This document shows, piece by piece, positions 610-62,957 of a stretch of 64,000 nt of DNA. The number at the start of each line of letters is the position of its first letter. Within the stretch, counting starts at the first letter, position 1. Under the pieces are notes generated by a model. The model was not told the DNA's origin, ran no database searches, and saw only the letters and a list, made by a program, of their open reading frames with translations. Position numbers and translations under genes: made by a program. Source of the stretch: Glaucostegus cemiculus (Eukaryota); NCBI GenBank assembly GCA_976551045.1, contig CDPCPM010000015.1, forward strand, positions 1,984,001 to 2,048,000. Direction: 5' to 3'.

Positions 610-990
610 GTGCAGTACTGGTTCACTGGATTGATTCCTAGGATGAGGAATTGTTCAAAGAAAGAGATTGAGTTAAATTGGTCCTTATTCACTGTAGTGT
701 TGGAGAGTGAGAGTCATCTCCTTAGGACACACAGGAGACTAGGAGCAATCGATATGGTGAATGCCAATGTGTTGTTTCCACAGGCCAGAGAGTGGAATGA
801 AAAACATTTAGGATTAGCAAGAATTTCACCTTAGTGATAGTTGTGAATCTTTGGCATTCTCCCCTCTGGAAGGCTGTGAGTCCTCAGTTCCTTCAGCATA
901 TTTAAGGCTAAGGCCGATAGATCTCTGGACACTCAGAGAATATGGGACTGGATGAGAAAGTGGACAAGACACAGAGCAGCTCATTCCTCA
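610..990 (+). mobile_element. Old CR1 3' fragment
   Basis: VQYWFTGLIPRMR.. and gttgtgaatctttggcattctc..aaggctgtg CR1 motifs. Confidence 0.65.
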
Positions 991-1199
991 TATCAATCCC
1001 TTCACTGACCTCTACCAGTGGCTTAATGCACTGTATAACAAGGCCCAAAGCAACCTGAGGACGTTTTTGACTATCAGTCCTTGTTTCATTTTTTCTTTCA
1101 TTTGCACAGTGTTGCTTGGTGGGCATGTCCCTATAGGTCAGACTATACAACATTAGCTGGTCTTCACGACACACTGCCCATTGAATGACCACAATGTTT

Positions 1200-1420
1200 C
1201 ACACTATTATAGCTATTCCCTGTGTTCCACCCATTGCCATTCCCACCTTCTCTACTACCTAAACTAACTTGTCATCTCTCTTTCTTAGTTCTGATGAAGG
1301 GTCTTTGACCTGAAATGTTAACTCTTTCTCTTTCCACAGATGCCGCCTGACCTGTTAAATGTTTCCAGTATTTTCTGTTTTTATTTCAGATGACCAGCAT
1401 CTGCAAGTTTTTTTGATTTT
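1200..1420 (+). mobile_element. Penelope-like terminal repeat with minimal hammerhead ribozyme motif (1287-1323)
   Basis: AGTT-CTGATGA-A-GGGTC-ttt-GACCT-GAAA-TGTT-AACT, followed by the shared cagatgc.gcctgacctg.t.a.tgtttccag block. Confidence 0.7.
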
Positions 1421-4400
1421 TGCTGAATAGCTGGGATCACATTGAACACAGGAGCAGGCTTGAGGGGCCAATTGAGTAGCTCCTGATACCGTTTCTTATG
1501 AATCTCACTATTTGTAATGAATGGTGTACAAATTCCATTTGGCTAATTTTTTGTGAGACTTCTGGACCCAATGTACTTCTGGCCCCTAGACAGGTGTGAG
1601 AGAGCACTGAGCTGCCAAATCCTGTCCTCTGGATCTGTGGGAGCCAAAGGCTCCTCATAAACCTCAAAAGGATCAATGACGTAATTTACTTTATAGCCAG
1701 ATTAATAAAGGTTGTAGCTAATTTTATAGGAGGCAAATTAGACATACTCCAATAACGGGGAACTGCCTTTCATTGGCCTTATCCCAATATATCAGATTTT
1801 AAATGGCAGAGGCTTCATTTTTACAGGATTCAGGAGAAAGAGGCTAGAATGCGTGGAGATTTTCACAACACTGTAGTTTTCTTGTGGCGGTCAGTTTTTG
1901 TGCCTGAGCACTGTTTCAGCTTTGACTCAGTGGGAGACACTCTCTTACCTATCCCCCAAGAGGGGAGGTTGTGGGTTCTAACACTGCTCCAAATCCTTGA
2001 GCGCAACAGGCTTGAATTGGTGGCTCTTGGATGAAAGGTTGTGGGAGCAGTAAAATAAAACTGTTCCAATCACTTCTTTGCATCAATTTGGCTCATGGTA
2101 AAACTATCCACCAAGGGTCAACATCTGTGGGACAGTCAAGACGAGTCCGGTGGGGTACAGGTGGTCCCCCACATTAAGGTCATTCGGGTAACAGAAATTT
2201 GCCTTTAATGGAATTCACCAATCACTACCCAAAACTTTGAGATGTAGAATAAAATTTGCTCCTACAGAATTTTGTGAAAAAAAAAATAATACACACAATT
2301 TTTTTCAACTCCTGTTCCTTTAAGCAGGTGCAGATAACGTGGCATGATGTGGACTGTTTTCTAGGAACTTGGGGGGGTCACCTGTAATTAAAGAATCTGT
2401 GTTTTATGCTTGGCCCTGGATGGCAGGTTCTTCAAGGATGGATGTGTCAAGCATCCAATGGCAAGACTGTTGGATGTTGAGACGGAGTGGGAGAGGGGCA
2501 CCAATATTTTGTGAAGTCACCTCAAGGGAGATGTCCAGCGGGGAGTTGGCAGCCCTTACGGACATAATCCATTTGGTCAATAGGAAGGTACAGAATAAAC
2601 CTGAATTTTAACATATCAATGAAATTTGGCTGCTGTAGTGTACATACTTAGTTAAACGGCCTGAAACTAATGTATTTGATCCATCAAAGGATCATGGATT
2701 CTTGGCAAGGACAGGATAGTTTAGATACAGAGTAAAGCTCCTTCAACACTGCCCCATCAAACACTCCCACAGCAGGGGCAACACAGATTGGACGCAGAGT
2801 GGAAGTCCTTTTCACTTCATGTCTTCATACACGACCAGGACAGGTATCGAAAACATTAGCATTAGACGCACAAAGTCAAAGAATCATTGTTCCAATGGAA
2901 AGAACCTTAGGTTATCTGATCCTTGCAGCTAAAATTTTACATTCCTGGCCATATCTTCATAAATTTCAGCACCCACTTCAGTCCAATCTGTATTTTGGTG
3001 GCCAGACCTGAACCCAGTACTCAACCTGTGGCTTAACCAGTGTTGTATATAATTTCAGTATAATTTCCCTGCCTTATAATTCTATGCCTTGGCTAATAAA
3101 GGGAAACCTCCCATATCCCTTTTTAACCACCATTTTGTTATTCCATGCTACCTGTAGGAATCCGCAGACAATACACGCTCAGATCCCTCTGTTCTTCCTC
3201 AAGGGTCAATGTCTACAATACCTACACCAGCCTGTGTCGTCAAAGGTGCTCAGAAGCAGGCTCACAGAAAGCCATTGAATATTCTGGAACTGCCACCCAG
3301 ACTGGTGTGGCACATTAATGGACATCACACGCAGACTCCTGGTTCTCGCTGGGGTCATTCATCAGGGGCACAGAGGAAACCACAATGAAAATGGCCAACT
3401 TTGTGCAACTTGCAAGTCCCAATCTTCATTAATGTTTAATCTTTTACAGAAGTTGTATCACAAACGCACAGCTTAATCTTTCAGCACACACCAGAGAATG
3501 TAAGGAGGTGAAGGCAGAGAGGGATCTGGGGGTTCAAAGAGTGATGGTGTGGTCAGTTAGTCACTAACTCTACCCTATGACCCCTGAGTACAGACTCTTA
3601 GCTGCTCAATCCAGCATTATCCTGATTCTAGGAAAGGCCAGATCACCCTGGATTGATCTAACTAAATGGTGCCCAATAAACACTAACCTTTTAATTAATT
3701 GTAACTGTTTGGTTCTAATTTAATTGCTTGGGGCTAAGTAATGGGTTTGGGTCTGGTTAGCTATTAGGCAGTACTGAGAAAGTGCTCACTGTCAGAGGTA
3801 CCGTTTGTAGGAAGAGGTAAACTGAGGCACCAGCAGCCTAGCCCTTGGATATAAAAGATGTTGGGGCATTGGTTTAAAAAGAGGAGACTTTGCTTGTGTC
3901 TGGCACTCTTTATGTCTTAATCAACATCATAAAACAATCAATCTTAGCATTATAATAAAAGGCACAGATTTAAATTCACCATTGACCTGTAACAACTGCT
4001 GTTTATCAAAAGAATTGTAAATTCCCATCACCATCTGTGTGGAGAGAGCTGGCTCTAAACTTCAGACTTTGCCCCACGTGCAGGACCCCTCCCTACTTGC
4101 GGGCTGCCCCCAGAACACTCGACGCAAAAGATGCGTTTAACTGTTCGTTTCAAGGCACATGTGACGAACAAAGATATCTTATCTTTTTCTCTGACTAGTT
4201 TCTCTCTATCCATCCCACAGGATGCTTTTAATATCTGAGAACTTTAACCAATCACCCCCTAACCTTTCAATTTCCATTGAATAAAACCCCATGTTATAAA
4301 CTAATCCTTGGAGATGAGATAACATTCTTGTAAATCTAATCTACTGTCCCTGAAAGGCCATCATTCCCTCCATGTGGAGAGAGGGCGGAGTTGTTCCTAG

Positions 4401-7394
4401 TGGTTTAGCCAGACCCTGTATCACTGAAGCAGAATATCTCCGGTCCTCTGATAGAGAGTGTGGCACCCAATCATCTGCCTTGATCATTTCGGTACCTGTC
4501 CATGATAATTAATGATTTACGCAGGTGGACCCCACTGTTTTTAGTCTCCAACCATTTTGAAAGACCTCTGTCTGCCCAGTTTTGGAGGATGGTGAGAAAT
4601 CATTCCCCATGTTGAAATTTTTATCTTAGATGGAGCCGAGTTAAGGATTCTTGGGATTCTGAAACTTCTGTGGCACTGATGAAGAGGCCTTTGACACAAA
4701 CCCCAATGCAAATCCTCCAACTCTCTTCTTTCCCAACCCCATCACTCTCACCCCTATCCACTCCATTCAACACCAACCCTGTCCTTGCCTCTTTTCCTTT
4801 CCTCCCAACCCCACCTCCAACTCCAGCCCCATTGCTGCCAACCCCTCCACTCTTATTCCCCAACTCCCTCCGCTCCATCACTTCCCTCCCAACCTATCCA
4901 CCTCCCCCCTACTCCATTCCCTCCCAAGCCTTCCCCTTCCCTCCCATGTACCAGATCACTTCCCTTCCAACTGACCCACCAACATCCTCCCACTAACCTC
5001 CCTCCCAAACCTATCACCTCATCCCCTTCTCTACCAACCCAGCACATACCCTCCAAACCAATTCACCAGTCCCCCACTCCTTTCTCTCTCAACACTTTCA
5101 CCTCCACCTCTCCAACCTCACTCCTTTCCCTTCCATTTCCCCAGTCAAAACAAGCCCAGTGGAAATGAATGAATCCTTTCCTCTGGACGTGGCAGCATTC
5201 TCTTCTCACCTCTGGGTCCAGTAGCCCTTGTGTTAATGGCAGCCCAGTTCACTTGGATCTTGCTGGTTGTAATTAACCATGGGCCTTTCTCCTGCCCTTC
5301 CATGGATAGCATCACTTAACTCATAGCAACATATTCTGGGGCTCCAGTGCCAATCTTTAGGTTTGGAGTTGAGGGTGTTGACAGTGTTACAATGTGCACA
5401 ATATTACTCTACACTGACTGGCACGAATAGGCTCAGTGGGGTGTGGAGCCAGCTTGATCCCAATCCAAACCCTATCAGTTTCCCAGTACCCACAGATTTT
5501 CCACTGACTGCCTGTTAGGGGCTAGGATTGTGCGGTAGGTGGGTGAAGGGCTGTGGCTCACTCTCAGATGCCTGGTGGGAGTGGCAAGCTTTCAGGTGAG
5601 ACTCACCAAGACTCCACCTTGCTCTCAGGTGGATGTAGGAGTTGTGATGGCAACGTGTGGACAGACCCAAGGGAGTTCTCCCCGGTGCCCTGGTGAATAA
5701 CTTATCCTGAAATTGTCATAATTTAAGTGCATTTTCTGGTCACTTTTCTACTTGTGGGATCCTGCTGTGTGAAAATCCGGATGACTGCCATTTGATCACA
5801 CTTTCAAATTATTTTGTTGTCTGTGAAGCTATTTGGAGTAGCCTGGAGTTGTGATAGGTGCTATAGGAATGCAAGGCTTGGGTTCTGGTTGTAATTCACC
5901 AATCCCACGGGAAATGGCCGGCAGTTATTGCCCATCCCTAGTTACCCCTGAACTGATCTGCTCACTTACCCATTTCAGAGGGCAGTGAAGAGGGGGTCTG
6001 GGTATGGGCAGCAGATTTCCTTCCTTAAATGCTAATAGTGAACCAAATGGGATTTTTAACAATAATTTGGTGATTTCATGGTCAGAATTATTGAGGCTAG
6101 CATTTTATTTGATTGAATTCCCAAGCTGCTGTTGTGAGATTTAAACTTGTGTCTCCAGATCTGGGCCTTGGATTGCTGGTCCAACTGCATAAGCACATCA
6201 CTGCAGTATCTTTAACAAGACCATGCTGAGATCTTGGGCACAAACAAGCAAATACAGCTGTGGTGTCCACCAGTAAAGTAGACCACTGGCATCAGCTGTC
6301 TACCTCAGTGCTGGCTAGTTCCAGATGGGTGAGGTAATGACTGCAGCCAGAGTTGGGAGCTCAGGAGCGTAGGTAGCAAAATGAGACAAGAAGGTAATAA
6401 AATGGTCACTAAAATAATAGGAATATTCAGATGCCAATAGGACCAGATGGAATGCGTCCAATAATAATCAAAGAAACAAAGGCTATAATAGTGGGAGCCA
6501 TGGCTGAAATATTTTGCAGCTCATTAAACATAAGGCAAGAACCAGATGAATGATTTAGGTTAAATTCTTTCTTGAAGCTCAGACGGCCAATTGTCTTGAC
6601 TGGTATAATGGAAAAAACATTGAAGGAAATAGCTTCAGCTACTTAACAAGAGCAAAGGTGATGTTTCTATGCCAACAAAGGTTTAAGAACAAAGGTCAGA
6701 TCCTTTAAAGATAAAACTTAATGTTGTGGATGCAAATACTTTGACAATATTTGATAAGGTGATGGATGAGATGCTTGTAACCAATTGGAGAGATCTTACA
6801 AAGAGATAGCATGTAGACAACAGGCCGGTGGCCTCAGTCTGTGCTGTATCACTCCATGAAACTAGGTGCTATCAGGGTTGGTCGATGAATTGTTTTTCAA
6901 CACTTTTAAACAGTGGTCAATGGGTGTCACTCTGACTGATCGCTCGGGCAAGTGGTGATAATGCTCAGAAGCAGTTTCCCAAAATGAAGAGACTAGGTCC
7001 CAGGACACGGTCCCAGGGCTGTTTAGCATATGTACCTTCACTCAGAGGGTTGGAATTCTTTACCCCAGACAGTGTGAATATTCAGTCACTGAGTATATTC
7101 AAAGGTGAGACAGTGGTCTCAAGAACTTAGTGGAAATAAGGATCAAGAGGGAAAAGGAATTAAGGCCACAAATTGCCAGATGACAGGGTAGTCTCAAGGA
7201 GCCACACAGAGGCAACTTCTTCAGTACCTCTAAGCACATTTTATAATGGGAGATCAGAACTCTTGATAGTACAGTATGATCCAACCAGAATATGACATAC
7301 CTAACAAGTTTTCTGATTTACAGTTTTATTCCCATTGAAATGACTCCCCCCCCCCCACCCCCAGTACTTGGTTTGATTTGTCGTTCAGTGATAG

Positions 7395-10415: not shown

Positions 10416-12844
10416 TGACGCTGTGTCTGAATCTTTTTAACTCTAAAGAGCCCTTATATTCAGGGGGAAGGCTTGATTAATTTACTCACTTTAAGATGAT
10501 TTTTCTATTAAGACTGACTACAGAGATAATTGCACAAGGCACAGTCTTCAAAGAAGGGAGATGAGAGAGCTCTAGGGAGGCTGAGTAACAACCTGTGCTT
10601 TCTTAAGGAGGGTGACTGAATGAGTTCCCAAGGCGATTGGTTTGGCGCTTGTTTTCTGAGGAGGAGGAGGAAGGAGAAGAGAGGATTCCAAAGTCTTAAA
10701 GCAGAAACCTGACCGGACCATTCCCAGGGAGAGGAGCTAACTGGCCAGTACAGTGAATTCCCAGGAGTCTCCAGAACACTACAGCGAGCAGCTTCCATGA
10801 GGGATAATCATGGCAGCGTGGAATTAAAATCACATGACAAAACATTCAGGGACAGGCCTAAAGACAACCAAAAAGAGCAGCACAGGTGGTGAGAAGATGT
10901 GGGAGGAGTGACACGGTGAGGGTACTTGGGGGAAGGAAAGATGGGGGTGGGATGTCACAGGGGAATGGTGCCAGGGGAATGGGGAATGGAGTGGGGAGCA
11001 GGGGCATATAGGGGAGAGAGGTAACATGGCAGGATGGGGGACATGGGGGAGATGGAAGCAGGAAGGCACGGGGAATGGGTTGACCTCGGGTGGGAAACAA
11101 TGGATGTGGAGACACAGAGGAGGAATTTGAGGCCTCAGGTGAGAGAAGGCAATTGGCAATGAGAAACAGGCAGGAAAGGGAGACAGAGGGAGGATCAGGG
11201 AAAGGAGACACAAGGGAAAGGGATGGGAATTCTAAACTAGGAAGACTAGAGGGAAAGTTTCTGGAAAGTAGGACTGGAAAAGGCTGGGGTAGGGGGATGG
11301 GCAGAAGTGGTGAGGAGTTGGTGCAGTGAGAAAGTGGATGGGTTAGAACATGAGTTCCAAGGAATTTTGCCAAAATTATTCCACCTCAGACAGAATGACT
11401 GTATTGTAACCTGGAAACTTTGATTACCCATATTCAGTGAGGTTCCTGTGGCAAAGGAACTGAACACTTCCTGGCTGAAGAGTTTGAAGTCGAATTGCTG
11501 GTGGAATGGAGAAAAGTTATAGCGTTCTGAAGAACAAGCTGGACCAGGAGCACAAAGCAGCTCTTTATCCAGCCACACCTCCAGTAACGTTCCAGCTCAA
11601 TGCAATCCAGGACAACCAGATCTGACAGAGTCCCCTATGCTTAACCAGCCATCCTTTCCACTCTCTGCAGTCTGCAACATCTTCCTGTTTATCCTCCAGA
11701 TCTAAGATCCCTACACCTCTGTAACTCTGATCTGTTGCACAGTCTCAGTTTTAATTGGCCCACCTATGACTATCATGTCCCAAGTTCCAAACTCTTGAAG
11801 CCACTCCCGCCCCCACCACCACCACCACATCCCCTGCGCCGTTTAAGATCATTGTTCCTTGACTGAGCTTTTGGTCACCTGACATTTTCTCTCCTGACAT
11901 GACAGCTCTGTGATAACTCTTTGGATGCTTTATTGCATTGAAGCTGCTATATAATGAAAGTTGCAGTTATTAACACCAAGCTAGATCAATATGCTTGCGG
12001 GAGCCTGGTACTGTGAGACAGAGAAATATCTGGTTCACCTTCCAACATCCTAGTAGTCAATCAATACTATAATGAGGTCATTGACTGATCTCAGTAATCA
12101 ATCTTGTCTACCACAGCCCCGGGAATGAGGTGCGGAGAGCCAATCAGGAGCACTTTGGGAAGAGGAGATTCAAACTTGCCCTGTTTCCCAGTAAATACAC
12201 TATAGCATGTAAATACTGACTCACAGTGAACACCAATTACCCTGATATTTGAAGCAGAAAATGATAGCTGACCTCTTCAAGTCTTTAATAATTATTTAAT
12301 TAGTCTTTGTTGTCTGTTTGTGAAAAATGCCAACCTCAGTACTGCTAGCAAGTGAAGCTCTCAGTGCAAGACCTGAGTCCCTTGCACCTTGTGAGGGGGA
12401 GTTTTATGATAACATTACATGCCAGGAATAGGTGAGTGAGGAGCTCTGCACCCCCGCTCAGTCTCGGCCTCTGCCCAGCAAGAGTCCTCTCTTATTTTCC
12501 GATGCCAAGCAAAGTTCCTTTCTCTTTACATTGCTGCACCTCCTGAGGTGCATAACATGGAAGAAAGTAAGGACTTGTACTTCTATGTCGATTTTGCATT
12601 CTCTGGACATCCCAGAGTCTTTTACAGCCAATGAAAGGTGCTCACTGATGTAATGTAGGAAATGGGAAACCCAATATACCCACAGGAGGGTGGGTTAATT
12701 AATGATATGAAAGCAGAAAATACTGGAACTAGTTCTGGTGAAACATCATCAATCTGAAATATTAACTCTACTTCTCTCACCACAGATGTTTCCTGGCTGC
12801 TGATGTTTCCAGAGTTTTCTGTTTTTATTTTTGATTTAGAAGAT

Positions 12845-13860
12845 TGAGGGGCGATCTCATTCAAAAGTACAACATGTTTAAGGTGCTCAACGGCATAGAT
12901 GCAACGTTGCTGTTTCTCCTGGCTGCGATGTCTTGAACCAACAGTCACAGTTTCAAACTAAAGGGTCAGCCATTCAGGACTGAGATGAGAAGAAATTTCT
13001 TCCCCAGAAGCAAGTGAATCTCAGCAATTCTCTACCCCAAGAGCCTCTGTATATTCAGGACAGAGAACTGTAGGTATTGAGGGAATCAAAGGATAAAGGG
13101 TTAATATTGGAAAGGAGTACTGAGCTTGAGTTGGTAGAGCAGGAACTAGGGGCTGAATAGCCTAGTCCTGCTTCTAGTTCTTTGTGTTCCTGTTTCCAAT
13201 ATCTGATGTGTTTATGTTAATTAGTGACTACTTTATTGATATTGCATGAAAATTAAAGAGCTTGAACCTACAACCATTTTGCTCCAGAGACAAGACACTT
13301 CCCACTGAGCCCAGATGGTGTTCCAAGGGGTTCTGTGGTGTCAGGGATTGATGCAAGACCTTCTTTCACAACATGTACATAAAGCAGCCCAATGGTTAAA
13401 GGCAGTGTATCAAAACACACCAAAAGTCTTTAGCAATTTGGAGCTGGTGATAAGTTTGGCTGAGACTTGGGATCTGATGTCTAGACAGATGATCTTATCA
13501 TCCTCATGAAGGAAGAAAGTTCCTTTGGCTCCAGTATACTTTGTAGCGAATGGGACCATAAACACGTGGTTACCTCATACATTAAACATGAATATTGTGT
13601 CATGGAACCTTAAAGAGAAAGAATTCTTTGCAATTGATTCCTGGGATTGTTTACATGACTATTATTGGCTGAACATCCACAGAACTGATCCAGAGAACTA
13701 CCTTACTTGTTCATAAATTGGCAATTAAAATGTTACTGGGGCTTTAAAGAGTTAAGTTAAAATAAACAATTTTGCGTAAACACTAGCTTTTATTCCCTTG
13801 AGAGATAATTGACCAAGGTGTTTAAGAAGCATAAAGGAATTCAGTTTGTAGACATGGAGA
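12845..13860 (+). mobile_element. Old CR1-type LINE fragments (3' end at 12845-13190; decayed RT at 13317-13860)
   Basis: gaggggcgatctcatt..gagatgagaagaaatttctt CR1 motifs. GVPRGSV and NLELVISLAETWDLM resemble RT GVPQGSV and DL..L..WA..W.M. Confidence 0.6.
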
Positions 13861-15850: not shown

Positions 15851-17559
15851 TAAAGCAGAGAAGGTCCTGCAGTGGGTTCTGCCTTTTCTCACTGCAGCCA
15901 CATGAAAGGACTGGTTGGCATCAGACCACTGGAGTGACTGGGGCTGGGAGAAAAGTCCCAGATGAAGGGTCTCGACGCGGAACGCCGACTGTCCATTTCC
16001 TGCACAGATGCTGCCTGACCTGCTGAGTTCCTCCAGAAGCTTGCTTATTGCCCCACTGGCAACTTATTTGTGATACCCGGCCTAAATCTGCAAGTGCCAA
16101 TAACCTCCCTTCAGCCCCAGAGCCCCGTCTTCTCCATTTGTGAGCTCAGGAGCCCGTATCATGGGTCTATGACCCAGTGTGCAGGAGGTTGAGTGTGATG
16201 GATCACAGAAATTTAAAGAGTAGCTTGTGGTTACCAACTGCCCTTCATAAAATTTTCTCTGACTCACTAAGCTCCTCACCACCTTTCCCAATGCCTCACG
16301 TGACTCTGTGCCAACCTTTGGTGTAAAAATGGGCTTACACGTAGCCAGTAATTCCACAGAGAAACAGAGACAGAATGAAATAATCATCGACAGAAAGACA
16401 GAGACAAAGAGGATGGAAAGTGAAAAAGTAGATGAGAGACCAAGTGGAAAAACTGACATGGAAAATCTTTAACTAACTGGCAATTACTTAATTTTCTCTC
16501 CATGAACCAAGAATGACTGGGATTTCTCTGATGTCATTGACAGAGTGAATACGATCCAAGTGCTTCAAGCCTTGTCCAAACTCGGGCTCGCTCTGCCTAC
16601 TCGCCCAGCTCAGTTGATCCAGATTCTGTGGACTTGACTTGTCTCAGACTTCTGTGCACATGGTTTGGTGTGGAAGTCCAAAGTGAGCTGACAGTCAGAT
16701 GCTGGCATGCATGACCTCTTCCTGCATCTTGGACTCACCAGTGAGATCACCAGTGGAGCACAGATGTGTGAGACAAGGGGCCAATGATGAGAGGCACCGC
16801 ATTAGCCTGTTAAAATAGATCCTTGAACCTAAGCTGGTTCTAAGTATTTTTATTTAATACTTTTAATCATTTGCTATCATTGTGAAGCATTCTTAATTAA
16901 TTTTAAAAAATCTTTTGCCAGCTTTTATTCTTGTTTTAATGAGGTAACACTATTGGACAGTTCCTAACTGGTTCTGCTTGTCAGAGCCATTCAAAGTCCA
17001 TCAGGGTGTGCCAGGGTGGGCTGCAGTATCTGCCATCTGAGGCCTAGTCTTTCCTCGCGGCCCACTCCTGCTCACCCAGTGCTTCTCAGGTATGGAGGAT
17101 CAACTTGGTCGACCCTCTGTATCCAGATCAGTGCAGGCGGGGAATCATCATGGCTGCCAATTCAGACTGGGCACCAAATCCAGGGCAAGGCTTCCATGGA
17201 TCAGCTTGGGAAATGCTCACTCCATTACATAAATCATTATTTTTTTATGGTTGAAGACTGAAACTATTGCTATAACATTTTTCCATGAGATTTTTTTTGC
17301 TTGTTTCCTTTTACTTTACCTTCACTTTCTGTCTTCCTCTGTCACTATTTTATTATTTCTCAGTTTTGGTTTCAAACTTTTTTTTAATGATTCTTTTTTC
17401 TCTTTTCTCATCTTTCTTTATTCCGCGCTCCCTCTCTCACTTTGTCTCTGATTTCTTTGTTTCCTTCCTTCTTTCAGTTTCCTCTCTTTCTATTCTTCCT
17501 CGATCTCTCTTCTGCCCGGTTTCTGGGTTTTATGTGTTTCATTTCTGTACACGTAACAG

Positions 17560-17710: not shown

Positions 17711-18329
17711 GTAAGGGAGGTTTGTGGAGGATTCTTATCAACAAACTCCGGTCCTAAACAACAAATGAAGTTATGACAACTGGCGATCGAAAGCTGCAGT
17801 CTAATTCGGTGTGAAGGTTCCTGTCGGTTTTCAGCTTATATTTTATAAAGAGAAACACAATGCTCGCCCATTAACGTAACATCTTCTGCACAGGAAGTAA
17901 CTGCTGGCGTGGAGCAAGGTGGTTAACTAACCAATCACATCAACCTGCATTTGTACAGTGGGGACTCAAGAGACTGCAGATACTGGAATCTGGAGCAACA
18001 AACAAAGTACTTGAGGAACAGTGGGTCAGGAAACATCTTCCTCTCATAATCTGCAGCCCTTTGTTGCCTCCACCTATCACCTCGTAGCCGCTGTCCCTAT
18101 TTCTACCCTTCCCCCCTCCATCTACCAATCATCCCTCCTCCCTTGGTCTCAACTATCGCTTGCCAACTCTTGCCCTACCCCTCCCTCTCACATTATACAG
18201 GTCTGAACCCGAAACGTTGACTGTCCATTTCTGAAAAACCAGAGAGTGATGCTGCAGATGCTACATCCCATCATCACGTCTGTGCTGAGCCACAGTGAGC
18301 TACTTCACAACCAAGAGGGGATTTAAGCC

Positions 18330-20745: not shown

Positions 20746-23441
20746 TTTTCTAATGCAGGTCAGCATCAATTCTCCTGGCAGCTGTTCTATTCTCAAGTGC
20801 AGTAAAGTATAATGAGCACAAATTGTAAAAGCCATGTTTGCAGCACCAAGAATGCCAATTTATTAATAATACAAACCAACCTGACTGTTCACAGTAATTG
20901 GTAACTGCTTTCCTTCAGACTAATCCCCTCTTTCTCCAGCACTCAATCAATTCAAGTGTTTCCAAGGCCTATGTCCAACTGCCTTCTCAAAGCATAATTT
21001 CTATCAGCACTCAGTCATTCTCACTGAGGCTGATTCTGCAGTAAGACTCACCCTGGAAGATTTTAATAGCTCTCTCTATAGCAATAATTCTCCACTCCAT
21101 GGGCACCTTGTCACCTCCAAGATCCACACCCACAGACAAATGTCACTGAATCCCTGGTTCATTACCCTTTAATTTTCTATTTCCTACATTTAAAAAAAAT
21201 ATGTGAGTGCATATTCTTCTGGTTGTGTTCAACTCTACCATTAATGTTGGTATCTTACTGTGAAAGTGTTGCTGATTTATTTCTGCAATATCACATTTTC
21301 TGATTCCTTACTAAAATGTCAGAGTTTGTGGTTTATTACTGTGAGTCTGGTTATTTCTTATCTAATCCAAGCTGGACCAAACCTAAAAGGGCTTTGACAG
21401 GACAATGTGGGGTAAACTTTCTGTTTAATGTGGACTTCTGTGTTAATGTTGCTGGTAAATCGACAGTGGGTCCATCATATTCCGTGAGACTATTTTAAAG
21501 AAGAGCAGGGATGCTCCTGTCATGCCTGGCCAAAGTTTATCCCTGAGCCAGCCTCAACGAGGAATAGAACTCTTTTGTTCCTTTAGCAGATGGCATGTTG
21601 TTGGCAAAGCTGTAACACCAATCTGTAATTGCCCTGAGGGAGGTCACTAACACTTCAGAGGGCAGATAGGAGCCAACAACATTGCTGAATGACTGGGGTT
21701 TCATACAGGCCAAAACTGGATAAGGATGGCAGATTTCTGTCCCTGATGAACACTTAGTGCCGGGTGGGATGTTACCCCGACCCAGTGATTTCACAGTCCA
21801 CATTACTGACCAACTTAATCAACTGAATTTAAATCTCCATCTGTAGCCCTGTGACAACCAGGTGTGTTGTCCATTTTGGAAGGGCTGATGGCAGCCTGGA
21901 CTTGCATGTGCTAACAATCATCAACATACTGGGCTTGATGTTGTGGTCGTGAATCCATCTTAAGTTGGGGAGGATCTGACGTGGCTGATTATCTCCTCTC
22001 CCCTTCATCTGGTGAAGGAGGTTTGATGACACGATGGAGATTGCAGGTGCTGGCATCTGGAGCCAAAAACAAGGAACCCAGTGGGTCAGGCAGCATGCAT
22101 AGAGGGAAATGGACAGAATCCATTTTGGAATGAGATCTTTCATCTGGACTGGTCTTCTGTCAATGGAATATATACAGCATTTCCCTCTGTGGAAGCTACT
22201 TGATCTGCTGAGTTGCTCCAGTAATTTGTTTATTTGCTCCTGTACCTGTTGATCTTGTACATGTGAATGTACCAATTAGTACCAGGGGTAGGCCACTCGG
22301 CCCCTCAGTTGTCTCTGATCATCAGTCCAAGAGGCTAAATTACTATCCCAGTGACATATCCACAGGGGCACTATGCCCATATCACATTTCCATTTATGGG
22401 ATCTCACTGTGTCCAACTTGTCTGCTACATTTCAGTGGCTAAGCTTCCAAATGGACTTTATTACATATTAAACCGTTTGGGACCTCCTGAGATCAGGAAA
22501 GGCCCCACTGAGGTCACTTTAACTAACTATCTTTAGGTTGGGTGAACCTGACCTCTCTTTCCCAGCACTATATGGGTCACCTTACCCACTGCCTGTGGGA
22601 GGCAGACAGCCACGTCCTAACATTCATGCCACTGGTTACAGGCAGGATATGAACAAACCTGCAACCCTGTGAGGAACCCTGGTCCATTAAAGCTGGCAGC
22701 TGGGCTATATGCTTCTATGATATGTTGCCTGTGGTTAACAATTTTCTGTCACTTGCTCAGTAAGATGAACCCTTGCAATGCTGCTATGCTGTCCTGCAGC
22801 CTATAAACCAGGCTACAAAGTTACAACAATGACAGCAGAAGAGAAGCAATAGTAAACATTTCTAAATCACTGGTCTAGTCCCAGTTGGAGAATTGCGTCT
22901 GAAGTCGGGGTCCCATATGAGATGAAGGACAGACAGGCTCTGTAGGATTATCCCATTACGGAAATCAAAAATCACACCACTGGCGCTTTCCCTCTTCCCA
23001 CCCTTAGAACTTTTACTGTTTTAATCCACCTCCTTTTAACTTCCAGAAAACGTTCATTGCTCAATTTCCCCAGCCCCACTAATTTGCATATTTATATTGC
23101 TGACAGCAATATCTATTCATGCAACTGCTTCTATGCAATAAACCAGTCACAGAACTCCAGGTTAAGTGTAATTATCCAGTGAGAACAAAACTGCAGAGTT
23201 TCTGGACAGTCCCTGACCTTTTGTCCTGCTGTTCATTATACAATACATGTTGGGAGTCAAGTTATTCCGGAAAGTGGCGCTGACATAAATACCTTATTGA
23301 ATGAGGGAGCAGGTATGAGGGGCCAAACATTCTGCTCCTGTTTCAACCCTGTGAGGACCACAGGCTATACTTATGCTATAGTCGGTGTGGTCTTGGTAGC
23401 CGGAGGCTGTTTCTCTGTTCTCTGACTCTGTGCCTATGCCT

Positions 23442-26552: not shown

Positions 26553-27095
26553 TAATTTATTGGCCTGTTCTGCTGCTTTGAAGGATCTTTGGACATATTC
26601 TGGATAAAATTCCACTTGCCTCGTGGAACCTACAGGCTCCCCTCCCAATCACACATGGGTTTCCCCTGGATACTCCAGTTTCCTCCCACATCCCAAAGAC
26701 ATGGCAGGTTTGTAGGTTACTCAGACACTGTACATTGCCCCTGGTGTGTGGCTGAGTGATAGGATCTAGAGAATTGATGAGGATGTGCGGAGAATTAAAA
26801 TACGATAAATGTAGACACAGGAGATGGCAGATGTTGGAATCTGGAGCAACTCAGTGGGTCAGGCAGCATCTGTGGAGACAGAGGGGCAGTCGGCGTTTTG
26901 GGTCGAGACCCTGCATCAGGATTAATGTAGGATTAGTGTAAATGGGTGGCCGATGGTCAGCATAGACTCCATGGGCTGAAGAGCCTGTCTCCATGCTGAA
27001 TCTCTCCATGAATCAGTGACAATCCTTATCTGGAGATATATTGCCGGACTTTCATCATGCTTAGATCTAAATTCTGAAACTCCTCACCCAACGGA

Positions 27096-32552: not shown

Positions 32553-34971
32553 CCTTAAAATTTCCCAAGATTGCCTTTCCTAATGCGTGCCCAAGGACAG
32601 ATGCCAGGAAATGTTAGGTCCAGTCATTACGTTCCACAGTTTATATAATCTCCCCATGCTCACTACTGAGACTTACTTTTCAGGAAAAGCCTCCTCCTGG
32701 GAGGCTGCACCCCTAAACTTCTAAAGGTAACTCTCACAACTACAGGACATCCAGAAATTCTTCACAACCAATGAAGTGTAGTCACTGCAGAGAAACACTG
32801 CAGTCACTTTGCACACTGGAAGATCCCACGAACAACAAAGTGATGGATTGGTAGATAAACCTTTTCTTAGTAATGTTGGTTGAGCAGTAAACATTGGCCA
32901 GGATTGTGGGGACAACTTCACTGATTCATTTAACAGGAGTTTTTGTATCCTGCTGACAGTGGGCAGAACATTGGGTTTATGTCTCATTCCAAAGGCAACA
33001 CATCCAATGGTGCAGCAGCCCCTCAGTACTGCACTGGAGTATTTGCATTGGATACTCAAGTTAAGACTTCTGCTTTCATTTCTGATTTAATTAGAATATC
33101 TTGTGCCTTTTCCCTCTGCCATCCACAAGAAAAAAAATATAAGCTCAGTTCTTAAGAGTGAGACTTGAACACACAACCTCCTGTCTCTGTGGCGAGAGAG
33201 CTGTCACAAGCCACAGATTATTATTATTTCTAATTTTGGCAGTAGTTTGGGAATGTTTGGGCAGATTGGTACGATAACTCCCCTCACCACCCCACCCCCC
33301 TGCCCTCAGAGAGCTGAATTAATCCAGTTCAGGGCTCCATCAAGTCTTTCCTTTCACCAAAGCTCAGTAATGTTCAGTGTGAGCACTGAACTATATGCAC
33401 CTCTCAGGACCATGTGTACCATGGGGTATGACCATCAGTCGATTTCTGTGACATCACTGGTGTTAGCTGGAAGTTGGTTGCCTGACCCACTGAGTATCTC
33501 CAGCATTTCCTGTTTTTTTCAGATTTCCAGTAACTGCAAGTTTGCTTTTTGATTACTAGATCTTTTCAACACCAGTAAAACAACACCTGTCATTACCAGA
33601 TTGCTGATTATGGGAGCTTGCTGTGCACACTTTAGTCATCAGTTTTACACAGTACAACAGTTTTACTCTGTGCCTAACCTATGCTGTCAATGCCCTGAGA
33701 GTGTTTGATGAGATACTGGAGAAAGAGGTGCCTCTATATCTAATGCAGGCTTTCCCTGCCCAGAGTATGTTTGTTGGAACAGTTGAGAGAAGGCTTTACC
33801 CTGTATCTAAACCGTGTTGTCCCATTCCTGGGAGTGATCGATGGGACAGTGGAGAGGGAACTTCAGTCTGCATTGAAGCCGCAATTATGGTGGGTATGTT
33901 AGAAGGGAAATTGTTTCAATATCCAACACCAACGTTCTACAAATTAATTAATCAAAGGAAAAAAATCCAACATGACTGATTCAACAAGTTGAATAAAATC
34001 ACACACAAAGTCCCAGGAAATTTTAAGGAAAGAGAGTGCATTTCATTGGCTGTGAAGGACTTTGGGACATCCTGTGTTTGTGAGAGGCATTTTAGATGTG
34101 GGTATGGAACCTCACCGGGGGCAGTATCACTCCCATCCCTTAACGAAGAAGCTATTCCTGAGACACAAGCACTGGGAGATTTATGCAGCCTTGTGGAGTG
34201 TGGGGACTGGGCTGATCCCTAACATTGCTGCAGACCATTCCTGGCAGTTCTCCCTGGACACACACTTGAAGTGGGAATCCCGGGTAAACTTAGGGAGAGA
34301 ATGCACTTAGGACCGGCTGAGGTCCTGAAAGGCAGAATAGAAATGCAAGACTCGTGTCAACCTGTTTGAGAACGATGTGCTGTGGCAAACCACTCTGCAA
34401 CCTTCTCCATCATCCAGGGATTGCAAGTGAACGCCACGTCCCAAGAATGAAAAATAAAAAACAATTTCTGCTTCTGCTCTCTCCCCTGGGAGCCTGTTCC
34501 ATCAACTAAACCCTCATCCACCGACCCAGAACCAAGAGAGATCGTCAGTTAATGCGTCACCAGCAGACATGAGGGAGAGTCAGGTTTATGTCCTCATTAC
34601 ACATGCTCCATAGCACTAAGATGAACAAAATAACTTTACTGATGAAGAACATTTTGAGGTTTGTAACACAGGAAATATGGCAGTTTATTTGTACACAGCA
34701 AGATTCCATAAACAAGAAGACAGTTTACTCGATCATTTGTTTTTAGTGATGTTGGGTGATGCATAAGAATTGACCAAAGAGCTGGAGTACTTATTACTGA
34801 TCATTGACCCTCCTGCCTGTCAAAGATTCTTCCCCTTACACACCCCTCATAATGTCAGACATCTCTGTTAAACCTCCCCTTAACTTTCTAAGGAGAACAA
34901 CTTCAGCCTCTCAGCACTCCCAGAATGAGTGCTACTGTTTTTAATTAAAGTGAGGATCTTTCCGATGTAAA

Positions 34972-35562
34972 AAAGCAGAAAATGCTGGAAACACTCAGCA
35001 GGTCAGGCAGCATCTGCAGAGACAAACAGTTAACGTTTCATCTCCAGGACCCTTCATCAGAGCTGGGATAAAGAGAAACAAGTTTGATTTTGGTGAGAAG
35101 TTGGGGGAGGGGAATTAATGGAACAAAAAGTTCTCTGATTGAATGAGACTGAATGACCCAGTGTCAGGGCAGTTTAGAGACAGTTAAAATCAGATTAAAC
35201 TTTGTGTGATATGTTGCTAATGTTGTATTGTCTGTCATGCTCAGGCACCCAGACTAATAGGATGGCAGCCAAAAGTGCCCAGTTCTCATACAAACAGAAA
35301 GAAAGTGTGTTATCTAAAGTTGAATCATTCAATATTGAGTGCTGCAGACACATGTTGCAGCCACATTAGGTCGTCCAGTGTCACCCTATCGGAAATATTC
35401 TCTGTTCCACCCATCCCTCTCCACCACCTTCCCTGCCACCAAAACTAACACTTCTCTCTTTCCCAGTTCTGATGAAGGGTCCTGGACCTGAAGCATTAAC
35501 TGTTCCTCACTTCATAGATGCTGCCTGACCTGCTGAGTGTTTCCAGCACTTTCTAGATTTCC
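34972..35562. mobile_element. Non-autonomous Penelope-derived element with about 150-bp inverted arms, each carrying a hammerhead-like motif
   Basis: gaaaatgctggaaacactcagcaggtcaggcagcatct (left) versus agatgctgcctgacctgctgagtgtttccagcactttc (right): 1 mismatch in 38. CTGATGA cores at 35054-35060 (-) and 35469-35475 (+). Confidence 0.75.
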
Positions 35563-35615
35563 AACTTCTACTGTTTTTTGTTAAATTTTCACCTCCCTCT
35601 TGTGTTGTGTAACAG

Positions 35616-35808: not shown

Positions 35809-35904
35809 GTCAGTCATGTTGGATTTTTTTCTCTGATTAATCTGTAGTATGTTGGTATTGAATATTGAAACAATTTCTATTCTAGCACACCCGCCAAAAT
35901 TATG

Positions 35905-47178: not shown

Positions 47179-50100
47179 GGAAGTGGAAGTCCAGCTTTTC
47201 TTCATTTCAAGGGAAAGCCACGAGGGTGCTAAGATTCAGTGATTAACCATCCGCCCTGTCCCTGAACCTTCCTTTTATTTCTACACAGCCATATATGTTG
47301 TCCTTCAATGAAAAGGGGATTAATTCATTGCAATATTAGCAGGAAAGCATGGAAATACTCAGCAAGCCAGGTAGTTTCCTTTGTGAGTGAAATGAATGAC
47401 ATTTTGGATCAATGACTCTTCATCAGAATGAGCTGAATTGGATTAAGCAGGTATATTGGGAAACAAGGGAGGAAAGAGCAAAAGGGAAGGTCTATAGGGC
47501 AGAATGGATTAAAAATAACAAGTGATCGCTCTGGAGAAGGTGCAAATGGCAATAACAAAATAGTTACTGGCAGCTGCTGTTTGAGGAAAGAGGAGTGAAG
47601 GCCATGATCTCAAATGGTTGAATTAGACATTGGTTCAGGAGAGCTGGAAATGTTTGCACTGTTATATCTTCACCTCCAACTTCCCCACTCTCAGCCCTGG
47701 TGCATATGACTCCACTTGTGCTTCTGAAGAACACTAGAGCTTGATCCTTCCCTGGCATGATCCACATGGGCAGGGTTTTGATCTGAGTGCAGATTCCATC
47801 CAGTATCAGCTGTCAGTTTTCAGCCATTGAGAAATGTGGGGAAATGCCAGACACCAGCCAGAGGCTCGGTGATGTTTGGCTCAGTTTGTTCCTTCAGAGA
47901 GACAGACCTGCACTTCCCTGCTGCGGGACACAACCTCTGCTCACTCCAAAGTTCTTCACAACCACTGAGGGGCTTTTGTAATGTTGCCACTAATGTAATT
48001 TAACAAACACAGCAGCTAATTTGCACATAACGAGTTCCCAGGAACAACACTGATTGAGAGATAAATATTGGCCCTGGGAAGTAACACCATGTGGTTATTT
48101 CTATCCACCCGGAAGTGCAGACAGAGCCTTGGCATAAGACATCAGCTGAGGAAAAGTATGTATGTTGAAAACGTTAAATATCCCATCCCCCCAAAGAGTT
48201 AATAAGGCAGCTCAGCAATCACTGCACTGTTGGGCCTCTCAGTCTGAGGCCTAATTCATTAATCACAAAATCAATTGCTGGAGATTTGTTTTTAATGTGA
48301 GTTCTGAAACAGGCCATCTTTCTATCCAGTGCCCCTGCGTGACTTCCACTTGCCAATCAATTATTCAGGGCTCATTGAGCATTGCCTGCTAGACTTCCAC
48401 CCGCTTGCTGTGATGGGTCCAGTGCAGCACCAAGGCTGGCTGTCGGGAGAGGGAGTGGGGAGTGTGAAACGTGACAGCGGGAAGGGTGGGGCGGGTTGCA
48501 GTGATGACACCAGCCAGGCAGCCTCCCTTGACGTGAGCCACAGCACAGTTCTGCAGCAAAGCCGCAGCTAGGCACAGAGCCAGCAGCCCTCACCTCACTG
48601 AAGGATAGTCTCACACCTAGCAGCAACTTTTCAAAATATCTCAAAGGATCCAGCAGCCTATGAAGCCATTTTAAAGTGTAGCCACTGTTGGAATGTAGGA
48701 AACATGGCAGCCAATTACTGCACAGTAAGCTCCCACAACCAACAAAGGGATAATGTCAAATCCAATCTGGCCAAATTGCTCACTCAGTGTGGATCAAAGT
48801 ATTCACTGAGTCAGTAACTTGGAATTGTTGAAGTAAACTAGATTCCACACTGGCACTTGATCTGTGAAACCTGAGCTCTAATTCTTCCCAGCCTGTTGAT
48901 GTCAGCCTCCTCACCCTCTTGAGAGTGCTGGTTTTACACTGCCTTCACCTATTCCAGGAGCTCAGAAGACCAAGTATAGCACATGCAGCATGGTTGCAAA
49001 TGCCAGAGTGCACCAACCAACATCAACAGGGCGCTGAAAGAAAAATAAACTCATCTCTTTCAGGGCATTTTGAACCTTTATCTGGGGTGGGACAACTGGT
49101 TGAAATTAAACGAAGTGCAATGAACCTGACGTAATTAGTTGTGCTCAGACTGAATGATGTTGAAAAAGTAGTCAAAGTCAAGGTCAAAGTCGAATTTATT
49201 GTCATATACACAAGTATATGTATGCACAGATGTAATGAAAAAAATATTTACAGCAGCTCCACAGGCACATAGCATCATACAAGCAACATTCACAAGAAAA
49301 ACATAAATTAAACATAAATTATACACAATTTTTACAAGAAAGAACAAAAAAAATGTCCATTTAAGTGCAAAATGGTCAAAGTTGTCATAGTCTAGATTGT
49401 GCTGAGTCAGGTGGATGGGGAGGCTGGAACGGGATGTCTCAGATGGTTGGGTTGGGTGGATGGAGAGGAGTGTGTGTCTGCTGCCTTTCCTTACAATGGG
49501 GTTGGGGTCAGGAAATGGCCATTTTGCTTGTTGCCAATTCATCTCTCTCTCTCTCCCTTTCTCTCTCTCCCCTCATCTCACAGCATTTCTCACTGTAGGT
49601 TTTCTATGTTTCTACGTTTCAATCCTATTCTCTCAATGTACCTCTTCTCCCCACATTTCCATCTTCCAGCCGTTGCTCTAAATCTCCTCTCATGTTGTCT
49701 CTCAACCCATCCATACTCCCTGCTTCAATATTCTTCCCTGGAATATACTTCACATTTCTCCTTGGCTTCCCTTTCTTCCTCCCACTTTTGGCCAACCTTC
49801 CCTGGAACAAGAAATATTATGCACTACTTATAGGGTTGACTTAAATCCATAGTACAAAGAGAATAATTCCTGGTTCTGTTCCTTAAAAGTTCCTTTGCAA
49901 CAGCTCACAAATCAGGGCATTGTGCTGATATTTACTGACATTGGCTTGTCTTTATGCTGTGAGCAGGTGATTAGGCAGAACAATTAGATTAACTTTAAAT
50001 CATGTTATTAAAGTGTTCCTTGTCCCTGGAGTGCACCTACTTCCCTCTTGCACACTGTTATTGTGTGGTGAACCAGCTGCCTGAGAACAGAGATCAAAGC

Positions 50101-51389
50101 TGCAAACCACTAGATAATGTTACATAGGAATTAAATTCTGGAATATCAACAGTTTAGGCAATATCAGAAGGGAGAGAAACAGATGTAATGTTTCAAATCA
50201 ATAACTTTCATCAGAACCTGGAAAAGTTAAGAAAACAAAGAAGACAAAGAAATTCCACAGCAGGACCACCAAACCTCATGATTTCTCAAGTTCTTCAAGG
50301 CCAATGAAGTACTTTTGAAGTGTGGACAATAGAGAAATGCATCAACCCAGCAAGGTCCATGGTAACCTTCGTGTTCAGACTAATCTGTTTAGTGATATTG
50401 CCTAGCAATCAGCTAGGGAAAACCGGAAACATGCTTGTGTATGGGGAACACTCAGAAAGTCAGCCAGTGTCCGTGGAAGGGAAACAAGTCAACTTTCAGG
50501 TCATTAACTCTATTTCTCTACCCACAGATGCTACCTGACCTGCTGAGTGTCTCCAGCATTTTCTGCTTTTATTTCAAATTTCCATAAGCTGCAGATTTTC
50601 ATTTTCATGCTTGTTGCTTAGTTGTAATGAAATGTCAATGACCTGAAACATTACCCATTTCTCTCCCCACAGATGCTGCCTGAACTATTGAGTATTTCCA
50701 GCAATTTTTGTTTTCATTTCAGATATCCAGCATCTGCAATTTTTTTGCTTTTCAATTAATTTTGGGAAACGACTGACAAAGATTGCTAATGACGAGAAGT
50801 AGCTGCCGTTCCTGATTCCAATTGAAATGTCTCATTGGATTCCCCCAACCATTTCAGCAATTCCCAGTCCCAGCGTCTCACCATATCACTCAATAAACCC
50901 CTTTCCTTATCCCAGTCCAATACTTCATCCATCAGTCCTAAAGGTGCTGTCTCTTGCTGGGCAATAGTCTCCCTATTACCAATGGTCAAAGACATTACAA
51001 CTCAGTGGACACTCCACCACATAGACGGGCAGACTGAGTGAGCAGCAGTAGGGAAGACCTACACTTCCGTAGCAGAACCACCAAACCTCATGATTTCTCA
51101 AATTTTTCACAGCCAATGAAGTTCTTTTGAAGTGTGGACAATAGAGAAATGCATCAACCCAGCAAGGTCCATGTTACCTTTGTACTCAGACTAATCTATT
51201 TAGTGATATTGCCTGATAATAATTCTTCAAACACTAGTGAGAAATTCACTGGTATGCCTCAAGTGACGTCTGCAGAGGACAAAGAAAGCCACAGTTTAAC
51301 ATTTTGCCCAAAGGACAACCTCTCTGACAGTGTGGCATTCCCTCAGAACCACTCTGTTGTTACTACACTGCCGCTCTGAGTGCTACATA

Positions 51390-60549: not shown

Positions 60550-62957
60550 TACAGACAACCACACACACAAAAAGTGGCACAAGCAAATGGAAACAGAGAC
60601 ATAAATACACATGCACGCGCGTGCATACACACACACGCACGCACGCACGCACACACATACACATGTACGCTCAAGCTAAGGTTTACAGCTCCCTGAGCTG
60701 AAAACCATTCTTCACTGTGGCAAACTGCAACAGAGCCATTTCATCCCCACCCCATTCTCTCTGGGAATATCTACACGTGTCAGTCCAACTCTCCAACCAT
60801 TCTACAGAAAATGAAAATAATGCGACCATGGTCTCAGTAATGATCAAATCAAACCAGGCCAGTCAGAGGATCCAGTGACTCGTGAGTGGCCCTGATGCTC
60901 TTCTCATAACAAGCTGCTTAATGGAAAAGGGATCAAATTTCCCACAACACACAGGGATGCTTCAATCTTATGTCATTATGGTGTTTTTAAAATTAGGTTA
61001 ACCCGCAAGCATGCATGGGCTTTCAAACAATTTGTAGCCTAATGAATCAAATGACTGCAGAAAGAGCCATCTATAAAAAGCAGTAGAATTACTCGCCTGG
61101 GCTACTCTAACAGCACCTCCCAAACCTGTGAACTCTACCGCCAGGAAGGATAAGGGCAGAAGATGTATGGGAACACAAATCTTTAATTGTCACTGCGTCC
61201 AAATCCTGGTACTCCCTCTCTAGTACCACAGTGTGACCACCTTCACCAGAAGGATTGCCCCGTTTCAGAAGCATACTCACCACGATGTTCCCAAGAACTG
61301 TTAGGGATGGCGATAAGTGTGGCCTTACCAGCAACATACTGGAAATGGATGTATTTATATATTAAAAAAAACTATTCTGTGTTGTACTGACCAAGTATCT
61401 TTTGCTGTCTCCTTTCCTTCTCTACTTCCTCCACACAAACTCTGCTCACCTCTCCCATGCATCAGATTTCACCCAGGCTGAGACAGTGAATGCCAGCAGC
61501 ACATTTCACCATTAGATCCTGACCCTTGTCCAGTGATCACATCCACCATCAATGGAGGGTGTGTGCAGGTACTTAAAGAGGAGGTAGACAAATGTTTGAA
61601 AGACTGGGGAATTGAGAGCACTGGGAAAGTGGCACAGAGGGGGAGTTACGGTCTGGGGCAAATTGGTCACATTGAAAGGTGGGACAGGCCTGAGAGACCA
61701 GTTCGCCAACTCCTCCTCCTCATTTCTCACGTTCTTATGTGTGGTGTGTGAGGCTGAGGAATGGGGTCACAGGATAGTGATGAAGTAGGAAAGTTACCAC
61801 TGACTAACTTATCCCAAGAGTGTGCAGAGCAACACTAATGTGTGTGGTGATTGTCATGACTGATTCTGATGTGAGGCAAAGACTGCTCCCCGTCAGTAGC
61901 GGGAGGAGCCCCTGTATCCACCACAAGTCATGTCTCCAGTTGTTCAGATATTATATCAAGAGGCACTAGTCTCTGAAAGAAATGTTACCTTAAAGGAATT
62001 TGAAGGAATCAATACTGCCTGCCAGCAGTAGCTCCTGAGGGAGCCTGTTCAGTGGCATGAGTACTCATGCAGTGAAATGCTGTTTCTGCACATTAATTTT
62101 ATCTTTACCAAGGGAGCTACAGAGACCAGTGAAACTGAGGAGGAACTGAGGCCAGCACAGTACACAACTGGAGCCTCACTGCTCCAGGGAACTGGGTTCA
62201 GTTCTGACCTCCAGTGCTGTTTGCACAGAGTTTGCAAGTTCTCCCTTTGACTGCATGGGTTTCCCCCAGGTATTCCAGTTTCCTCTCACTTTCCAAAGTC
62301 AAGATCTTGGAAAATGCTGAGCAATTTACTGTAGCCAATTAATGTAGGTGGGAGAAGAAAGGTGTTGATGGGCATGTAGGAGAAAATAAGTTCCAGAGAA
62401 ATAATTAAGGAAATTGGATTGACGGGGCTGCCTCATGAGCTGGCAATGGGTTGATGGGCTGAATAGCCTTCTTCTCTTTCATAAGGTATTATGAAAACAT
62501 GAACTGTGTAGATCACTGGCAGAGAACGTGACTGAGAGAGGAAGGGAGCTCTTGCCCCAGTATCAAACTGTATCCACTACTTTGATTTCATTATTTATTT
62601 TAAACATGTGGTTTTGGAAACCCTTCATCAGAACTTTTCCAGTTCAGATGAAGGGTTGTTAACCTAAGGCATTAACCTGAAACATTAACATTTTTCTCTC
62701 TCTTCAGATGCTGCCTGACCTGTTGAGTGTTTCCAGCATTTTTTGTTGTTATTACAGATTTCCTGCATCTGCCATTTTTTCTGATTCTGTAGTGTGAACT
62801 GTGGCTCAGTAAGTAGAACTCTTGACTGAATCAGAAGATTACGGATTCAACTCTCTGTCCAGAGAGTTGAGCGCAAAGACCTATCTAATGGTCCAGGGTA
62901 GAACTGAGGAAGTCCTGTACTACAGGAGGTGCAAACTTTCACAGTGTTAACCAATGT

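Follow-up and report, generated by a model that had tools for sequence, protein, structure and literature searches.

The hammerhead-bearing repeat dispersed through this 64-kb window (the whole stretch of Glaucostegus cemiculus DNA analysed here) very probably consists of decayed terminal pieces (UTR, predicted hammerhead and tail) of endonuclease-bearing Penelope-like retroelements (PLEs), likely Neptune, left by old retrotransposition bursts, and the copies in the window are likely inert.

Occurrence of the repeat in the window

A profile built from genomic copies matches the window at 15 places and its reversed sequence at none, so the occurrence is not chance, and longer subfamily profiles resolve 17 pieces. 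A sequence-only reading of the same DNA had named 12 places, all of which carry the motif or its 3' half on the strand it gave; its count of about 12 copies is too low, at 15-17 pieces depending on the profile. The 37-nt unit that it described is also too short, as shared sequence extends to both sides of the motif: self-comparison of the window reveals a tail of ~110 nt 3' of the motif that is common to copies, and in some copies UTR and the end of the ORF precede it over as much as several hundred bp. The pieces are as follows (subfamilies A-D are defined in the next section).

984..1418 (+): 5'-truncated subfamily A copy with endonuclease/UTR remnant at 984-1233 (weak), UTR, hammerhead and tail; EN/UTR profile E 3.7e-5 and 9.6e-7, pLTR profile 1173-1418 at 202 bits
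1287..1323 (+): minimal hammerhead motif, the sole strict-descriptor pass in the window; stem III CpG changed to a U-G wobble; predicted stems I and II, pairing probability 0.75-0.98
12731..12845 (+): subfamily A stub beginning with the first stem I base; stem II disrupted, A6 altered
15954..16065 (+): AGTC-type stub (motif 15954-15990), U4-to-A, 3' core broken
17961..18038 (-): piece of tail only, inverted relative to its partner, the 18105 copy
18105..18231 (+): subfamily B piece, UTR and 3' half of the motif
22024..22152 (-): subfamily B stub (motif 22115-22152), U4-to-A, head-to-head with 22167-22232 (+)
22167..22232 (+): inverted tail piece
26841..26964 (-): subfamily D copy (motif 26887-26923), A9-to-C, with G12 and U16.1 also changed
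33479..33547 (+): tail-only piece, absent from the earlier list
34954..35349 (-): long subfamily A copy with the last GIY-YIG ORF codons, UTR, hammerhead 35027-35065 (core intact, stem II broken) and tail; EN/UTR profile E 7e-24 (35349-35122), pLTR profile 157 bits
35360..35585 (+): inverted partner, truncated at its 5' end, with hammerhead 35464-35502 (changes at A14 and G16.2), head-to-head with the 35027 (-) copy
47330..47430 (-): front-edge subfamily A stub with a change at G12
50135..50234 (-): subfamily A copy, decayed
50444-50511 (-) and 50502-50602 (+): head-to-head pair, absent from the earlier list
50620..50747 (+): subfamily A stub, decayed
62619..62782 (+): subfamily A copy, internally duplicated, with a short inverted hammerhead arm immediately 5' of it

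The degraded state that the sequence-only reading ascribed to these copies is confirmed: 11 of the 12 listed copies fail a strict descriptor, and the one that passes (1287) does so only through a U-G wobble. An Rfam scan of the window at E<=10 returned 24 matches with no hammerhead family among them, and a 27-letter pattern derived from the earlier layout found no window match at 3 mismatches.

Other repeats share the window. A second, unrelated dispersed repeat (~200 bp, SINE-like) lies at 59751-59950 and is present as 13 pieces of 78-91% identity, the others at 4095, 7398, 10186, 18728, 26361, 26656, 41128, 46998, 55444, 57629, 60287 and 62241. Local repeats, 85-91% alike, adjoin hammerhead copies at 35600-35940 (with 37649-37938 and 33883-34004) and at 49853-50002 (with 51065-51214).

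Motif architecture and subfamilies

Clustering on tail columns only, using the 262 of 401 matches that cover core and tail once duplicates are dropped, separates four subfamilies. The main one, A, has AGTT/AACT arms, U at position 17 and a G-U pair closing stem II; B has AGTC/GACT arms and C at 17, so that the AGTC...GACT type noticed in the window is a genuine cluster of genomic copies. Subfamily C has A at N7 (22 of 23 copies), and D, which accounts for 45 of 288 randomly sampled copies, combines a shortened stem I with an A9-to-C change (25 of 32). The innermost stem I pair is U-A in one type and C-G in the other, a switch that probably happened once.

The core CUGANGA...GAAA...UH is found in the majority of A, B and C copies; most D copies, with their A9-to-C change, and a U4-to-A sublineage of B depart from it. 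Both U4 and A9 are catalytically important in hammerheads. An extra A between positions 9 and 10.1 is nearly constant (155/168 in A, 38/39 in B, 22/23 in C and 29/32 in D). The predicted layout, that of the minimal type I hammerheads in Penelope pLTRs, is supported.

Two details of the earlier description change. It took AACGTT as the stem III palindrome; the palindrome proper is a 4-mer at 15.1-16.1, extending to a 6-mer only if position 17 is U. It also attributed mutation of the copies mostly to CpG decay, which holds for stem III, where the palindromic CG of positions 15.2-16.2 (without a loop) has decayed in both directions (TG 33, CA 65, CG 32), but not for the stem II closing T of the main subfamily. 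That site in subfamily A reads TG in 125, CA in 8 and CG in 4 of 168 copies, making T ancestral; in B, C and D, two-way decay points to an ancestral C. Helix II is short (4-5 bp), and the sequence proposed earlier for a cleavage assay has G-U where the conserved G10.1-C11.1 is expected.

Covariation of the stems across copies, put forward in the sequence-only reading as a check on the fold, does not rise above shuffles, with one compensatory pair in total and none in stem II. In 65 score-selected copies (>=60 bits, covering the motif), 78% of cells are paired against 18-46% with slid partners; this copy-level check is nonetheless not passed, because shuffles often reach the observed values (161/500 for cells paired, 65/500 for the covariation score). 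Better support for the predicted fold comes from an unrelated young family (described below), whose stems differ and are paired. Could the motif resemble a hammerhead by chance? The empty Rfam result and the insignificant copy-level covariation would both be expected, yet the most variable core position among subfamilies A, B and C is N7, which is free in hammerheads; the young family, dissimilar in DNA, shares the core, the extra base and the 4-mer palindrome while its stems are wholly different and fully paired; and the position in the pLTR matches the published one. We therefore consider a chance resemblance scarcely credible.

Linkage to Penelope-like retroelements

Searching the 2.85-Gb genome at the DNA level gave 2,183 preliminary candidates, of which 40 were scored and 30 retrieved. 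In an independent set of 30 loci, chosen on the endonuclease region alone, 26 have the motif or tail 100-700 bp downstream on the same strand (opposite strand, 1), which substantiates the linkage to RT/GIY-YIG sequences elsewhere in the genome on which the Penelope assignment had been made to depend. Approached from the motif, an ORF remnant lies in the preceding 900 bp of 22 of the 167 random matches that have enough upstream sequence, with none in a mirror control, and all four subfamilies contribute. The motif sits ~300-400 bp 3' of RT/GIY-YIG frames: in many of the 30 retrieved loci, broken frames resembling the GIY-YIG C terminus lie ~300 bp upstream of it, and stepwise extension upstream of those loci reached RT motifs.

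A stop-free frame of 169 residues has 14 relatives, the best from the rays Mobula and Hypanus, in agreement with the elasmobranch host proposed by the sequence-only reading; full-length relatives carry RVT_1 and PF26215, and one (P0008) also GIY-YIG. With tblastn, 70 of 112 loci match these protein relatives, and matches to P0008 and a second relative, P0006, are collinear, indicating a single ORF with RT followed by a C-terminal GIY-YIG domain, in which RT and EN motifs are present. A CX2-5CxxC linker precedes the endonuclease in 14 of 19 long copies. From these features the parent elements likely belong to the Neptune clade, the linker being shared with Nematis. In L143, a decayed near-full-length copy and the only one of its kind analysed, the tail is directly repeated before the ORF start, and protein similarity starts ~200 nt past the motif.

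The ORFs themselves are decayed. Long copies from the protein search are broken or partial and 41-58% identical to P0006, and no intact ORF of the window family is present among the 52 matches listed from a protein search with a stricter prefilter; one stop-free stretch of 525 residues is partial. Pfam searches of 6 read-through and 7 stop-free decayed frames reached no curated cut-off (best RVT_1, E 0.11), and the ORF is identified through its protein homologues. Within the window, tblastn found no ORF remnant, and the remnants there are seen by DNA profile only.

Two ray proteins named as host-gene isoforms (P0001 and P0004) consist almost wholly of this element's RT/endonuclease sequence, and probably represent annotation read-through into element copies.

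Abundance, arrangement and decay

Sampling 96 stretches of 10 kb (960 kb) at round positions of large contigs gave 186 matches, 95 of them covering the core, and none in reversed DNA, a density of 1.94 per 10 kb (bootstrap 1.61-2.27). The high abundance proposed from the window alone thus holds across the genome, where we estimate 5.5-6 x 10^5 copies, an extrapolation that assumes the sampled large contigs to be typical. Applying the longer profiles to 136 stretches recovered 288 copies reaching the tail. Exact searches of the genome found at least 5,000 matches to a 27-mer from the subfamily C tail and 1,780 to a subfamily B 35-mer. The strict descriptor finds 6 motifs in 1.36 Mb, corresponding to ~1.3 x 10^4 genome-wide (95% interval 4,600-27,000).

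Inverted arrangements are common: 58 of the 186 matches lie in head-to-head pairs and 2 tail-to-tail, and inverted partners and head-to-head pairs are known from PLEs (PMC8557442). Only 12 pairs among the 186 matches lie on the same strand within 1 kb of each other. Partners for a dimer are therefore rare, as inverted pairs supply antisense partners and same-strand pairs are so few; the 4 intact motifs in the 960-kb sample each lie in a separate stretch. An active dimer is outside what RNA cofolding of the motifs models. The densest sampled cluster (L178:2518-9459, G000:C74) has nine matches in 10 kb, several on the same strand and 250-950 bp apart.

Identity to the subfamily majority is about equal in core and tail (A 0.84/0.83, B 0.89/0.91, C 0.98/0.94, D 0.87/0.86), so copies appear to decay neutrally; no selection on the core is seen in A, B or D copies, and the C values come from 9 unbiased copies only. 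This bears on whether some copies have been kept by the host as working ribozymes that cut host transcripts, an idea to which the ~1.3 x 10^4 strict-descriptor copies, with both stems predicted to fold, lend some appeal. We regard such domestication as highly improbable, given a core no better preserved than the tail in A, B and D, covariation within the range of shuffles (161/500 and 65/500), the failure of 11 of 12 listed copies at the strict descriptor and the reported lack of in vitro cleavage by single minimal motifs (PMC4209133).

A front edge at stem I

The 5' ends of copies pile up at a front edge. Among the 288 copies, 82 begin within the 12 nt from -8 to +3 of C3, compared with 20 in the 48 nt upstream (-60..-13) and 25 in the 12 nt around the cut site (+23..+34), an excess with binomial p of 5e-39 and 1e-8. 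Simulated truncation of 58 long copies at uniformly distributed points produced no such peak (421/443 recovered). A search among the sampled genomic copies for an accumulation of 5' ends at the cleavage site found none; some copies nevertheless start near it, the 5' repeat of L143 one column after the cut site. Fifty-eight of the 288 copies reach >60 nt upstream. The pattern is less clear-cut among 30 tail-selected subfamily C copies (25 of them on a single contig): the extent of truncation ranges from 19 to 687 nt, only ~3-4 of 30 start at the front edge, and 2 of 30 start within 1 nt of the cut site. The 66 solo edge copies match the element back to about -4/-5, and their composition approaches background beyond about -6.

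In all four subfamily profiles an A/T-rich island precedes the stem I A by 29-31 nt, with a TATA-box consensus in C; we take this distance to be promoter-like from the usual spacing between TATA box and start. The same -45..-1 stretch reads in all four profiles both as a TATA/initiator promoter and as an acceptor with pyrimidine tract and CAG, and in subfamily A it has a branch-point-like motif. The edge might accordingly be a 3' splice site, with the stubs copied from spliced RNA, as the tract and CAG before the motif in every subfamily would allow and as the D. virilis intron ending at the 5' end of helix I would parallel (PMC4209133). The AG, however, persists in edge copies (A 0.64, G 0.67; next base 0.68), and the 66 solo edge stubs show no common spliced exon upstream. 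Of the TSD-defined starts, the two nearest the edge fall on the A, although this is 2 of 7 only. We judge splicing a distinctly unlikely origin of the edge. Against a TATA-driven start at the edge, the Drosophila Penelope promoter is described as internal and TATA-less (PMC2377424).

The core variants behave differently with respect to copy length. In subfamily D, A9-to-C is present in 9/12 long and 9/12 edge copies, from which it follows that a coding lineage likely spread with the changed core. In subfamily B, U4-to-A is present in 14/20 front-edge stubs against 4/16 long copies, and may mark a stub-biased sublineage. Such a bias would fit a self-propagating stub lineage, that is, a non-autonomous, SINE-like, pLTR-derived ribozyme element whose own short transcript is copied in trans by Penelope proteins. 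Non-autonomous PLE derivatives have indeed been described (bioRxiv 10.64898/2026.07.22.740005), the 5' edge common to copies is sharp, and flanking direct repeats are found at 7 of 66 solo edge copies against 5 of 322 swapped controls, with scattered starts; yet ORF-linked copies exist in all four subfamilies, 58 of 288 copies extend >60 nt upstream, tail-selected C copies are truncated over a broad range, the stubs lack the upstream A/T island, and tandem units, the defining trait of retrozymes, are rare. As an account of the repeat as a whole we find this unlikely. The separate non-coding Penelope derivative advanced by the sequence-only reading is thus not supported: for the most part the copies derive from coding elements, as stubs or as ends lacking the 5' part, and each of the four subfamilies includes ORF-linked copies. 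Given the U4-to-A stub bias, there may be a minor non-autonomous component alongside these remnants.

Proposed mechanism

If the copies are remnants of coding PLEs, the element's RT-endonuclease would nick the target and reverse transcription would start inside the RNA, ~110 nt past the motif. Initiation in the 3' repeat would yield long truncated copies, and initiation in the 5' repeat would yield stubs reaching the 5' end of the RNA. From the DNA alone, that 5' end is likely where transcription begins, on the first stem I base. The templates copied were likely uncut in most cases, and the motif of the parent element is probably a weak ribozyme, dimer- or protein-assisted and unneeded for insertion. 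In the anole element PAc, reverse transcription starts 111-118 nt into the ORF, the ribozyme requires protein, and catalytic mutants insert normally in vitro (PMC11167929). Single minimal motifs are reported not to cleave in vitro, and dimers to cleave weakly (PMC4209133).

More tentatively, and with somewhat less than even confidence, the insertions could be taken as an in vivo record of copying: a TATA/initiator start, a hammerhead at the 5' end of the RNA, internal initiation close behind it on uncut RNA, which yields stubs, and the spread of core variants, with cleavage dispensable for mobility in animals. Dispensability follows in this record reading because lineages with A9-to-C and U4-to-A would have spread to tens of thousands of copies. 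If it is true, a young family with intact tandem motifs offers a live test system.

A young, separate Penelope-like family

One such family is present in this genome. Its 740-residue open frame encodes RT and GIY-YIG and is 98.6-99.6% alike across 11 loci (L132-L142), and more than 30 genomic places are listed, often clustered. Seven intact motifs lie within 20 kb in tandem units 1.1-1.2 kb apart, with the same core, extra base and palindrome as the window family and fully paired stems of wholly unlike sequence. Its features map as follows.

L145:622-1860 and 3182-5404: young family features
L146:575-9930 (G000:C4): young family features

The surrounding region has frequent CCCTAA hexamers (39 and 57 per 10 kb) and, upstream, a 679-residue proline-rich frame. 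Among the sequencing runs listed for the repeat of this family none is an RNA data set, a result that weighs neither way. We rejected this intact family as parent of the window family, as it has no DNA similarity to the window profile.

Comparison with known systems

By layout and position, the window repeat is a predicted minimal hammerhead (min-HHR) of a PLE pLTR, an arrangement already published for metazoans (PMC4209133). As described there, min-HHRs have the same core boxes, a single additional base between 9 and 10.1 and a loop-free palindrome at 15.2-16.2; they form several sequence families per genome and are mostly single dispersed motifs from truncated elements with some close opposite-strand pairs. 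Our intact-motif count (~1.3 x 10^4) is of similar order to those given for coelacanth (4,000) and Xenopus (9,000). Compared with the motifs in that description, helix II here is short (4-5 bp) and closed by G-U in the main subfamily, two sublineages carry common core changes (A9-to-C and U4-to-A), and total remnants reach ~5.5-6 x 10^5. The available portion of PMC4209133 names no cartilaginous fish, and literature searches, with Repbase, Dfam and paper supplements outside their scope, found no publication on the window family. Our results extend a published motif to this genome, where remnants occur about twice per 10 kb; this is useful for repeat annotation and unsurprising.

Non-LTR retrozymes also carry a type I hammerhead of pLTR origin, and they are reported in the one chondrichthyan genome sampled (bioRxiv 10.64898/2026.07.22.740005). 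As defined in the accessible part of that work, they are built of tandem units each with a complete motif, whereas the window family is dispersed, single or head-to-head, and no such tandem units of it were found in the 960-kb sample.

Among coding elements, the endonuclease-bearing (EN+) PLEs of the Neptune clade, as far as set out in the part of PMC8557442 consulted, correspond in domain order (RT then C-terminal GIY-YIG), in the CX2-5CxxC linker, in heavy 5' truncation with an inverted 5'-truncated partner, and in having a pLTR with a hammerhead. They differ in that our best matches contain no intact ORF, and the linker occurs in Nematis as well.

The Poseidon element PAc of Anolis belongs to another clade, and its ORF starts in stem II; it likewise places a hammerhead at the pLTR/ORF junction, with copy 3' ends ~110 nt beyond (PMC11167929). 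The 5'-end pattern and the core-variant sublineages bear on whether PLE minimal hammerheads cut in vivo and on whether cutting matters for transposition. The in vitro finding for PAc that uncut RNA is the main template (PMC11167929, as excerpted) fits the 5'-end pattern seen here, and the spread of core variants agrees with it too.
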